This document shows positions 39,001 through 42,000 of a stretch of DNA of 43,830 bases, piece by piece. Within the stretch, counting starts at the first letter, position 1, and each line of letters begins with the position of its first letter. Origin of the DNA: a virus (taxonomy: Duplodnaviria; Heunggongvirae; Uroviricota; Caudoviricetes); the IMG/VR virus record IMGVR_UViG_2839610755_000005; one strand, given 5' to 3'. A program made the position numbers.

Positions 39001-42000
39001 ACAAAAAATGCAGCGTATGGCGTTGAGATAGAAAGTCTGGTGCTGGAGATAAATGCACCGGCAGCATAATAAAAAAAGAGCCAGCGACTGACCTGAAAAA
39101 GAAGACGCTGGCTAAAAGGCCTTATATGTTTGTAGATACTTATTTTTCACAGACAGCAATGATGCCTGTCAATATATTATCAATATGCGGATTGTTTCAG
39201 TTACAGATGCTTTATTAAGGAAAAAAACAGCCAGCACTGACTTTCGGTGGGGAGGTGCTGGCTCAAAAGGATAGTTGGATTTCACATGATACTTATGCCT
39301 GGCGGTATATTTTCTGACAGACAGTGACGGATGTTGTCAAGATATTGTGTCATTTATAACCTGAACCAGGGGGGCCGGAATGTTATCTGGCATTTTTAGC
39401 AGAGCCTGAATGCCATAATCACGGCTCCCGGAGTTGGCCGTCAGTGGGTGACACTGGCGGCTTTTTGTTTTCCTTTACTTTCATTTTCTGTCGGCGGTGA
39501 CGGAGACATACATCAGATGGAAAAAATCACAACAGGTGTGTCATACACCACGTCAGCGGTAGGGACGGGATACTGGTTACTGCAACTGCTGGACAAAGTC
39601 TCTCCGTCCCAGTGGGTGGCAATAGGTGTACTGGGGAGTCTGCTGTTTGGCCTGCTGACGTATCTGACAAATCTTTATTTCAAGATTAAAGAAGATAAGC
39701 GTAAGGCTGCGAGAGGTGAATAATGTCGCCGTCATTACGCAAGGCTGTTGCAGCTGCTATTGGTGGTGGGGCTGTTGCCATAGCGTCTGTGCTCATCACT
39801 GGTCCAGGTGGTAACGATGGTCTGGAAGGTGTCAGCCACATACCATACAAAGATATCGTTGGCGTATGGACTGTATGTCACGGACACACCGGAAAAGACA
39901 TCATGCCCGGTAAAACGTATACCGAAGCAGAATGCAAAGCCCTCCTGAATAAAGACCTTGCCACGGTCGCCAGACAAATAAACCCGTACATCAACGTCGA
40001 TATACCGGAAACAACGCGCGGCGCTCTTTACTCGTTCGTTTACAACGTGGGCGCTGGCAATTTCAGAACATCGACGCTTCTTCGCAAAATAAACCAGGGC
40101 GATATCAAAGGCGCATGTGATCAGCTACGGCGCTGGACATACGCTGGCGGTAAGCAATGGAAAGGGCTGATGACTCGCCGCGAGATTGAGCGTGAAGTCT
40201 GTTTGTGGGGGCAACAATGAGCAGGGTAACCGTTATTATCTCCGCTCTGGTTATCTGCATTATCGCCTGCCTGTCATGGGCTGTTAATCATTACCGCGAT
40301 AACGCCATTACCTACAAAGCGCAACGCGATAAAAAAGCCAGTGAGCTGAAGCTGGCGAACGTGACAATTACTGATATGCAGGTACGCCAGCGTGATGTCG
40401 CTGCACTTGATGCCAGATACTCGAGGGAATTAGCCGATGCGAGAGCTGAAAATGAAACTCTGCGTGCTGATGTTGCCGCTGGTCGTAAGCGCCTGCGCAT
40501 CAACGCCAACTGTCCAGGCTCCTTGCGTAAAGCCCCCATCACCTCCGGCGTGGATAATGCAACCGGTCCCCGACTGGCAGAAGCCGCTGAACGGGATTAT
40601 TTCATCCTCAGAGAACGGCTGATGGCAATGCAGAAGCAACTGGAAGGAGCACAGGAATATATCCGTACCCAGTGTATACCGTGATGTTTTGTTATGAAGG
40701 TGTTACTGGTAACGTTAAGGTAATTTAACAAAGAGTCAGTTCCGGACTTTATAGTGTGCTCAGTTCATGGACAAAAACGATTTCTGTGATAAATATTTTG
40801 AATATTATTTACAGGTAAATGGAGTGGGGCGCATGGATAGAAATATTACAATAGAGTATGAAGTATATGCCCGTATTGTATGGGCAGAGAAGGCAAAAAC
40901 ACGGTAATTCCGTGTGTTGCCATGATACCTGATTGGCAGAATAGTTGTTTGGTTTTGAGTATATAGTCAGCGTTTTTTGTTCAGTAATTGCCCCCTCAAA
41001 AAATAATAAAATAAGGTGATTATTTTTGTTTATTATTTAGTTTTTTTTGTGTGTTATTTTATTGTTTTTGCGTGGTTTGTTTTTTATTGTTATTTCATTA
41101 AGGGAAGGTAAATTCAGGATGGCAGTCTGTAGATAATCGGAGGTCACTTATGCTACATGATCACGTGGCAGAATGTCTGGAGAAAAAAGGACTGTACCGG
41201 AGAGCAGCTGAACGATGGGCAAAAGTGATGGTACAGCTAAGTGATGACCAGAAAAGAAAAGTGGCGGCACAGAAACGAGCAGAGTGTTTGCGTAAGGCGC
41301 GCCGGACTCCGGTTTCACCGGTGAACCTGACCGAAATAAAACAAGCGGTCAACAGACTACATTCTGAGTTGGGAATGGGATTTGAAGAGCGGCGGGTATT
41401 CCGACGATATAAAGGGACAGGAGAACAGAATACGTCCGGAAACGCGCGGTCAAAAAAATGCTAAAAAATATCTGAGAGAGTTATTGCCTGTTACCATAAG
41501 AAAAAGCGACTTTAGTGGTCGCTTTTTGTGTCATATATAAGTCGTTTAAGTAAACCTGTCTGAACAGGTGCTCTGGTCGTGTTTGTCTTTGTTGGGTACA
41601 AATTGAGAATATTTTTCATTAATTAATCTTCTTCTGCAGGCTTCAATAACCCACGCTGAAAAATTACCTGAACCTTTCTGGTCAAGAGCGATGTTAATTT
41701 GTTCAATCATCTGGTTTGGAAATCGGATGTTGCGGGTTGTTGTTCTGCGGGTCCGGTTTTTCGGTGACATTTTCTTTCCTCTGGTGACAAGCTATATGGC
41801 GAGGATTTTACATGGCCGTGCTTCGTACGTTACCGGGCAGAATCAAAACTCTGAATACCCGGCGGGTGAATGTCCTGAAGGGGGAACAGCGTCGGGTCAG
41901 TGGCAGTGCCCGGGTTTCCCTCAAGCGTCGTATCTGGCTGAGGGATGCCGGACAGTGCTGTCTCTGTGGGCGTGTGGTTGACCTTTGTGACAGTGAACTC

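Follow-up and report, generated by a model that had tools for sequence, protein, structure and literature searches.

The window analysed here is a stretch of 43,830 nucleotides (nt) of tailed-phage DNA (Caudoviricetes; IMG/VR record IMGVR_UViG_2839610755_000005), and its genomic setting is the late region, rich in morons, of a lambdoid, Shiga toxin (Stx)-type prophage. Between an esterase gene, nanS-p, and the holin gene lies a 447-nt intergenic region which contains, on the minus strand, the two hairpin units that are our subject. A sequence-only reading of this DNA had described two tandem minus-strand hairpin units between esterase and holin, each with an A7 run on the plus strand, as candidate antisense small RNA (sRNA) units for which no function had been described. 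Their positions were confirmed by inspection of the sequence and by a repeat finder (families D6 and D9; inverted repeats I6 and I14). The view that nothing had been described was mistaken, since the locus is already known: it is that of the published Hfq-binding sRNAs PasA and EcOnc51/52, which have been named and partly characterised. Very probably, the two units are tandem, diverged copies of one sRNA gene, with unit 2 a member of the PasA family and unit 1 the counterpart of EcOnc51/52. The features concerned are as follows.

37219-39069, plus strand: nanS-p-type SASA-family sialate O-acetyl esterase gene, 616 amino acids (aa) (open reading frame (ORF) list; RefSeq annotation of the identical O157:H7 locus)
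39079-39113, minus strand: unit-1 terminator hairpin, AGCCAGCG at 39079-39086 and CGCTGGCT at 39106-39113, an 8-bp GC-rich outer stem plus an inner helix
~39137 to 39071, minus strand: unit 1, Hfq-bound RNA of the EcOnc51/EcOnc52 type, ~67 nt if self-promoted, and likewise the 3' portion of the long (236-nt) PasA form
39142-39172, minus strand: unit-1 promoter-like element, -35 TTGACA at 39172-39167, a 17-nt spacer and TGAAAA at 39149-39144, or alternatively a -10 AAAAAT at 39147-39142
39229-39263, minus strand: unit-2 terminator hairpin, AGCCAGCAC at 39229-39237 and GTGCTGGCT at 39255-39263, 9 bp, GC-rich
39305 to 39221, minus strand: unit 2, PasA-family sRNA (PasA-2-like), ~85 nt, base for base onto PasA of E2348/69 (743499 to 743415)
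39305 to about 39068-39071, minus strand: read-through form matching the minor, 236-nt PasA, from the PasA 5' end to the unit-1 terminator
39309-39340, minus strand: unit-2 promoter-like element, -35 TTGACA at 39340-39335, a 17-nt spacer and TCAGAA at 39317-39312, or alternatively a -10 GAAAAT at 39314-39309
39517-39723, plus strand: class II holin gene, the right flank, followed by lysozyme and spanin genes (ORF list; annotated relatives)

The two terminators start 150 nt apart. On the minus strand the unit-1 hairpin runs into CU7 at 39078-39071 (plus-strand A7 at 39071-39077), so that this terminator abuts the esterase stop codon, and the unit-2 hairpin is followed by U7 at 39227-39221 (plus-strand A7 at 39221-39227). 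On the plus strand the 3' side of the hairpins reads AAAAGG or CAAAAGG, with no U-run, and therefore both hairpins terminate leftward transcription only. Folded as minus-strand RNA, the unit-1 terminator gave -16.5 kcal/mol (z = -6.8) and the unit-2 terminator -15.3 kcal/mol (z = -3.3), and none of 200 shuffles was as good in either case. For unit 1 a consensus scanner reported a terminator at the inner portion of the hairpin only, as the hairpin loops are longer than it allows. Both minus-strand terminators, together with a plus-strand terminator before the holin, are annotated in the curated phage 434 record OL657226.1.

Related loci were collected by scanning IMG/VR with a conserved 32-mer of the holin leader, which together with the other loci fetched and the window itself gave 127 anchor-containing places. 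These comprise 78 two-unit loci, 17 whose only unit follows the esterase stop directly, 23 that are rearranged (mostly by insertion sequence (IS) insertions) and 9 that are truncated, and they yield 32 distinct units. When 19 representative units were aligned, the 9-bp stem of the terminator proved to be 96.5% paired and to hold two compensatory pairs (C-G to U-A and G-C to A-U), and its covariation score was higher than in any of 500 column shuffles or any slid control. The hairpins are thus kept, with compensatory changes, in related prophages, as had been expected of real units. Units 1 and 2 are diverged tandem duplicates, that is, paralogues: in local alignment of the 150-nt units, the score was reached by none of 2000 dinucleotide shuffles, and the same result (0/2000) was obtained with the unit bodies after removal of the terminators.

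The identity of unit 2 comes from the work of Pearl Mizrahi et al. (2021, PMC8550237), who applied Hfq RIL-seq (ligation and sequencing of interacting RNAs) to E2348/69, an enteropathogenic E. coli (EPEC), and reported five prophage sRNAs validated by Northern blot and with Hfq-dependent stability. According to their Table S6, PasA starts at 743499 on the NC_011601 minus strand and ends at 743415 in its major form (85 nt) and at 743264 in its minor form (236 nt); its neighbours are E2348C_0688 and E2348C_0689, and the orientation from esterase to holin is > < >. The ~80-85-nt PasA and its Hfq-dependent stability were observed in E2348/69 by Northern blot with an hfq-deletion strain (PMC8550237). 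The E2348/69 pasA locus, in prophage PP2, aligns colinearly with the window at ~95% identity and holds both units. Unit 2 is identical to E2348/69 PasA at 74 of 85 positions (87%); ten of the differences fall in the 5' ~40 nt and a single site differs in the 3' 45 nt. The window equivalent of the 236-nt form is 94.5% identical. The published Northern probe, GCCAGCACTGACTTTCGGTGGAGAG (Table S6), matches window 39230-39254 at 24 of 25 positions, and the PasA seed, GCCAGCACCU (PMC8550237 Fig. S5), is carried unchanged as GAGCCAGCACCUC in the 5' arm of the unit-2 terminator.

Zhu, Shabalina and Storz (bioRxiv 10.64898/2026.05.13.724894) place PasA and PasC in the gap that separates the sialic-acid esterase gene from the holin/lysozyme operon, and also describe a common variant, PasA-2, with the PasA 3' end and a diverged first 40 nt. 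Because unit 2 of the window is only two single-nucleotide polymorphisms, both inside the RNA, from one of two equally common forms among the sampled loci, it is probably a variant of this PasA-2 type. All the PasA-family features that could be compared, namely gene context, strand, homology, probe site, terminator and seed, are present in unit 2.

For unit 1 the match is with sites found by Hfq crosslinking and analysis of cDNA (CRAC) in enterohaemorrhagic E. coli (EHEC) Sakai. Tree et al. (2014, PMC4104026, Table S2) list EcOnc51 in prophage Sp12 (2237479-2237555, plus strand; area under the curve (AUC) 1,091,434) and EcOnc52 in Sp4 (1181998-1182075, minus strand; AUC 1,027,603); both are orphan Hfq-CRAC sites of 77-78 nt, predicted as sRNAs with a Rho-independent terminator flag and without a Northern blot. 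Table S6 of Pearl Mizrahi et al. remarks on PasA, "Homologues identified in EHEC (EcOnc51/EcOnc52)" (PMC8550237). The CRAC coordinates refer to NC_002695.1 (v1), and they were mapped here on NC_002695.2 (v2) after calibration of the shift between the two versions. Comparison of the AgvB1 peak (1941783-1941835) with AgvB at 1941920-1941981 in v2 gave a shift of +137 to +146, and the end of the HnrS/EcOnc10 peak (2234287), 3 kb from EcOnc51, compared with the HnrS terminator end in v2 (2234435) gave ~+148. The stx2A gene starts at 1267107 in v2 and at 1266965 in v1, a difference of +142. Overall, the shift is ~+142 nt and begins somewhere between 1.18 and 1.27 Mb.

With the shift applied, EcOnc51 runs from ~12 nt inside the esterase gene ECs_2262 to ~64 nt beyond its stop, and EcOnc52, unshifted, from 11 nt inside ECs_1088 to 67 nt beyond its stop. 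Both map to window ~39051-39138, that is, to unit 1, covering its terminator plus ~25 nt upstream, and their sequence differs from that of the window by a 2-nt loop deletion and one base. When the published coordinates are read directly in v2, EcOnc51 would be unit 2; this assignment is ruled out by the AgvB1, HnrS and stx2A calibration. In general, EcOnc sites of Tree et al. placed on the current Sakai RefSeq without shift correction land wrongly. HnrS itself (EcOnc10/11/12) is a 66-nt multicopy sRNA that lies 3' of a ylcI-like gene in the late region and can pair over 15 nt with the 3' end of mazF; it was rejected as the identity of unit 1, as locus and sequence are different and nothing in the window matches the HnrS segment of Sp12.

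The RIL-seq data from EPEC also touch unit 1. The entry pasA.E2348C_0688.IGR, which covers the unit-1 region, has five interactions, with this region as RNA2 every time (PMC8550237), and in the chimera with escD, a gene in the enterocyte-effacement locus (LEE), the RNA2 part at 743267-743294 (minus strand) is the unit-1 terminator. In place of the PasA seed unit 1 has AGCCAGCGUCU, a PasC-type arm, and the family layout is kept. A search of paper text for EcOnc51/52 or the hairpin sequences returned nothing further.

Each unit carries a promoter-like element of the TTGACA-N17-A-rich form, and we predict a promoter for both; that these elements function as such we infer from their sequence and position. 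The predicted start of unit 2, at 39305-39302, coincides with the published PasA 5' end, and that of unit 1, at 39137-39135, with the 5' edge of the CRAC peaks (~39135-39138). The alternative -10 elements GAAAAT and AAAAAT need spacers of 19-20 nt. Of the two TTGACA hexamers named by the sequence-only reading, the second (39340-39335) was correctly placed and the first, given as 39171-39166, actually occupies 39172-39167; they had been put ~150 bp upstream of the terminators, and the distances from the RNA 3' ends are in fact ~100 nt (unit 1) and ~120 nt (unit 2). The conserved block that it had noticed is real: ACAGACAG is shared by both units, at 39149-39156 and 39317-39324, and forms the 3' part of the promoter spacer. 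The top block outside the terminators in the comparison of the two units, TATTTT.T.ACAGACAG...TGTCAA.ATATT, corresponds on the minus strand to the -35, spacer and -10 region. The TTGACA hexamer is invariant in 32 of 32 unique units.

The most diverged copy of the locus is a relic beside IS600 on ~94-kb plasmids (~82-97 kb), for example at 86732-86891 of plasmid pL3 (NZ_CP071714.1; L127 in our set), and holds unit 1 together with ~30 nt from the end of the esterase gene, at 91.5% identity. Its terminator stem has gained a mismatch and a wobble pair, and its promoter-like block is unchanged, with 0 substitutions in 43 positions vs 16 in 153 in the flanks. A different minus-strand promoter was called by the scanner, CTGAAA-18-TATATT at 39200-39171; calls of this kind occur at chance frequency and the ~94-nt RNA that it predicts does not fit the CRAC peak edge, so we keep it as an alternative only.

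From these elements we propose the following scheme, in which the transcripts, their ends, Hfq dependence and RIL-seq or CRAC partners come from the literature on near-identical sequences, and identity, paralogy and covariation from the present analysis. Both units would be transcribed leftward in the lysogen, against the late operon (nanS-p - S - R - Rz), with which they converge. The unit-2 RNA (~85 nt, Hfq-dependent) would pair in trans with core and accessory mRNAs through the seed. The unit-2 terminator would be leaky, so that a minority of transcripts would read on for 150 nt to the unit-1 terminator and give the 236-nt form. Unit 1 has the same layout as unit 2 (TTGACA, 17-nt spacer, A-rich -10, a short single-stranded 5' part, hairpin and U7), and transcription from a promoter of its own most likely yields it as well, as an sRNA of ~67 nt. 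Regarding the claim of two minus-strand sRNA units, published transcripts end at both terminators of the near-identical E2348/69 locus, CRAC peaks lie on unit 1 and the hairpins are conserved, so that neither of the refuting results named by the sequence-only reading holds and its interpretation is supported; a self-promoted unit 1, as opposed to a second PasA terminator, is what we infer.

The strongest alternative is that there is one gene with two terminators, in which the PasA promoter alone is active and unit 1, a duplicate in decay, serves as a back-up terminator; EcOnc51/52 would then be a 3' fragment of the 236-nt read-through RNA, possibly released by RNase E. We regard this as quite possible, though not probable, and several observations weigh against a second, self-promoted gene or against parts of the evidence for it. 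Pearl Mizrahi et al. treat the unit-1 region as a minor 3' extension of PasA, and in their EPEC RIL-seq data it is much rarer than PasA (119+54 vs 4983+116 chimeric fragments; PMC8550237). The -10 elements of both units are weak, and neither promoter, that of unit 1 included, was called by the simple consensus scanner. For PasA itself, Zhu et al. (bioRxiv 10.64898/2026.05.13.724894) raise the possibility that the 5' end comes from cleavage of a longer transcript. In Sp4 an IS629 is inserted at the equivalent of ~39192 and unit 2 is missing; because the unit-1 copies of Sp4 and Sp12 are identical, CRAC reads cannot prove Sp4 expression or be assigned to the copy without unit 2, and Sp4 alone proves nothing. 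The near-equal AUCs of EcOnc51 and EcOnc52 probably reflect reads shared between the two copies. The zero offset used for Sp4 was argued from the matching relative positions and from the homology remark of Pearl Mizrahi et al. Finally, the published experiments were all done on other strains, and the transcripts of this exact prophage are predicted from sequence identity.

On the other side, the promoter-like block is the best-conserved segment of the paralogues outside the terminators, its TTGACA is invariant in every unit-1 variant, and it is free of substitutions in the most diverged copy. Both CRAC peaks have their 5' edge at the predicted unit-1 start. Moreover, the Sakai CRAC list has no peak over unit 2, though a read-through precursor would include it. 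These points favour a tandem pair of sRNA genes over one gene with a second terminator.

What the RNAs act on bears on the remaining alternatives. In EPEC, pasA has 41 RIL-seq interactions, and most of its partners, among them ftsB, frr and bfp, are trans-encoded; its targets share the motif CUG(G/A)UGCUGG, complementary to the seed, and include the 3' ends of esterase genes, which rank among the top PasA target sites (PMC8550237). The corresponding site is found in the window.

39036-39046, plus strand: PasA target motif CTGGTGCTGGA in the last nanS-p codons, complementary to the PasA seed

The PasA sites given in Table S7 for E2348C_1246 and E2348C_0688, "GAUAGAAAGU CUGGUGCUGGA GAUAAAUGCA" (PMC8550237), are identical to window 39026-39056, and the 8-mer occurs once within nanS-p. 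A plus-strand RNA at E2348/69 743494-743512 was recovered in RIL-seq chimeras with PasB, with up to 798 fragments in the non-activating condition (PMC8550237), which indicates that sense and antisense RNAs of the PasA locus coexist in the lysogen. That segment corresponds to window ~39300-39318 (plus strand), antisense to the PasA 5' end and promoter.

A second alternative is action mainly in cis, the RNAs being antisense to the nanS-p 3' untranslated region (UTR) and the holin leader, so that RNase III cleavage or transcriptional interference would tune the esterase or lysis genes. The units are indeed convergent with, and fully complementary to, the late transcript within the 447-nt nanS-p-S gap, the plus-strand intergenic RNA is present in the lysogen RIL-seq data, and the esterase 3' ends are among the top PasA sites. 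However, the trans-encoded majority among the PasA partners argues against this, and the duplex with the nanS-p 3' end was no better than that with shuffled sequences: when each RNA was tested by RNAduplex against the last 80 nt of nanS-p, 107 and 99 of 1000 shuffled targets, or ~10%, were equal or better. We consider mainly cis action quite unlikely. A combined possibility, in which a true tandem pair (PasA plus self-promoted EcOnc51/52) and a recombinant PasC go together with action in trans and, in addition, cis antisense action on the nanS-p 3' UTR and holin leader, we also hold to be unlikely; if true, such a cis-acting pair would couple the sRNA output of the lysogen to esterase or lysis-gene expression. 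That the hairpins are mere insulators against leftward transcription into nanS-p, with the RNAs as by-products, or are chance features, would agree with one-directional terminators right at a gene end and with the want of a genetic demonstration of Pas sRNA function, but is most improbable given Hfq-dependent accumulation, dozens of reproducible RIL-seq partners with a seed-complementary motif, conservation with compensatory changes and up to nine copies per genome.

In prophage PP5 of E2348/69, PasC has a unit-2-type body and the unit-1-type stem AGCCAGCG/CGCTGGCT, and in one two-unit locus (L057) it is unit 1 that bears the PasC-type loop. This combination suggests recombination or deletion between the two terminators as the origin of PasC. 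The single-unit loci (for example L002, L011 and L021) are of two kinds, the PasC type and a AGCCAGUAC type. The stem of the second type, AGCCAGTAC/GTACTGGCT, shows a compensatory C-G to U-A change. Our literature search found no account of unit 1 as a PasA/PasC paralogue or of the PasC terminator as one of the unit-1 type. Zhu et al. (bioRxiv 10.64898/2026.05.13.724894) state that pasA copies did not come from tandem duplication, the nearest pair being 22 kb apart; this conclusion was reached because unit 1 was left uncounted.

Compared with known systems, the window is closest to PasA of E2348/69 PP2, with the same position, orientation, terminator and seed and the same 150-nt spacing to a second terminator, whereas the first ~40 nt of unit 2 differ from it at 10 positions and match the other common variant instead. 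EcOnc51/52 cover unit 1, with an 11-12-nt overlap onto the esterase 3' end; unlike PasA, they are predicted sRNAs only, without a mapped 5' end. PasC belongs to the same family and has the same flanks, but is a single unit after the esterase stop where the window has two. Tandem duplicated sRNA genes are known in PrrF1-PrrF2 of Pseudomonas aeruginosa and OmrA-OmrB of E. coli, and PrrH is a read-through product of the first PrrF terminator. The adjacent paralogous units and read-through RNA of PrrF1-PrrF2/PrrH resemble the window locus with its 236-nt PasA; in contrast, neither PrrF nor OmrA-OmrB has sequence kinship with it, and their second units are proven to be transcribed independently, which is predicted here. 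AgvB/AsxR and STnc100/PasD (the PR' moron site) are likewise short Hfq-binding sRNAs set against the late operon of the same prophage, yet they belong to sequence families different from those of units 1 and 2. AgvB/AsxR was also tried as an identity for the units and rejected, as the covariance models RF02702 and RF02703 gave no match in 38900-39600 at E <= 10; over the same segment, no Rfam family matched at gathering or permissive thresholds (E <= 10).

The sequence of the locus is widespread. Positions 39060-39530 agree at 100% identity with prophages of the O157:H7 E. coli strains FRIK944 and Z1835 and are matched in 699 of 5426 complete E. coli genomes, where the median number of places per genome is 5 and the highest 9, as well as in 29 phage records that include H-19B, Stx1a-converting phages, YYZ-2008 and phage 434. 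Two small ORFs, 39126-39218 (plus strand, 30 aa) and 39169-39285 (minus strand, 38 aa), were rejected as genes, as they vanish in single-unit loci. Other features of the neighbourhood are the following.

35669-36727, plus strand: DNA methyltransferase gene, a late-region neighbour
39374-39391, plus strand: second, weaker terminator-like hairpin with a T-run, between the sRNA promoters and the holin start
39436-39462, plus strand: terminator-like hairpin before the holin, 11 bp then TTTTTGTTTTC, with a T-run to 39472; an annotated terminator in phage 434

The plus-strand hairpin at 39436-39472 shows no variation among PasA or PasC loci. Transcripts of nanS-p that lack Q-antitermination would stop there, and both sRNA genes would consequently lie inside the nanS-p 3' UTR.

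Several other RNA elements were seen in the window. Just upstream of nanS-p, STnc100 (36807-37007, plus strand; 150 bits), which is related to PasD/EcOnc13, is convergent with a perfect copy of the anti-GcvB sRNA AgvB (37071-37010, minus strand; 96.5 bits). Four sRNA units thus bracket the esterase gene, STnc100 and AgvB upstream and PasA and EcOnc51/52 downstream. The ylcI/ynfO-like gene region (41636-41916) is 95% identical to Sakai Sp12, and where Sp12 has HnrS the window has a short minus-strand hairpin with a T-run (GCGACCACTAAAGTCGC TTTTT) at ~41501-41522. Further Rfam matches were DicF at 25224-25275 (minus strand, 76.7 bits), the sok antitoxin RNA at 31706-31880 (plus strand, 111.7 bits) and the ALIL pseudoknot of an IS3-family frameshift site at 2202-2318 (minus strand, 120.9 bits).

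Raw sequence was thus sufficient to recognise a locus of validated Hfq-dependent sRNA, although the practical value of this is small. The locus is absent from Rfam 15, and as a result PGAP/Rfam annotation is blank at this place in hundreds of pathogenic E. coli genomes. To what was published our analysis adds that PasA and EcOnc51/52 are the upstream and downstream members of one diverged tandem duplication, which contradicts the view that tandem duplication never occurred, and that PasC has a terminator of the downstream-unit type; both refine the published picture in a minor way. In the literature, the function of these sRNAs is said to be one that "has not been elucidated". The Pas RNAs are enriched in EPEC and EHEC, with up to nine copies per genome, and their partners include LEE and bfp genes.

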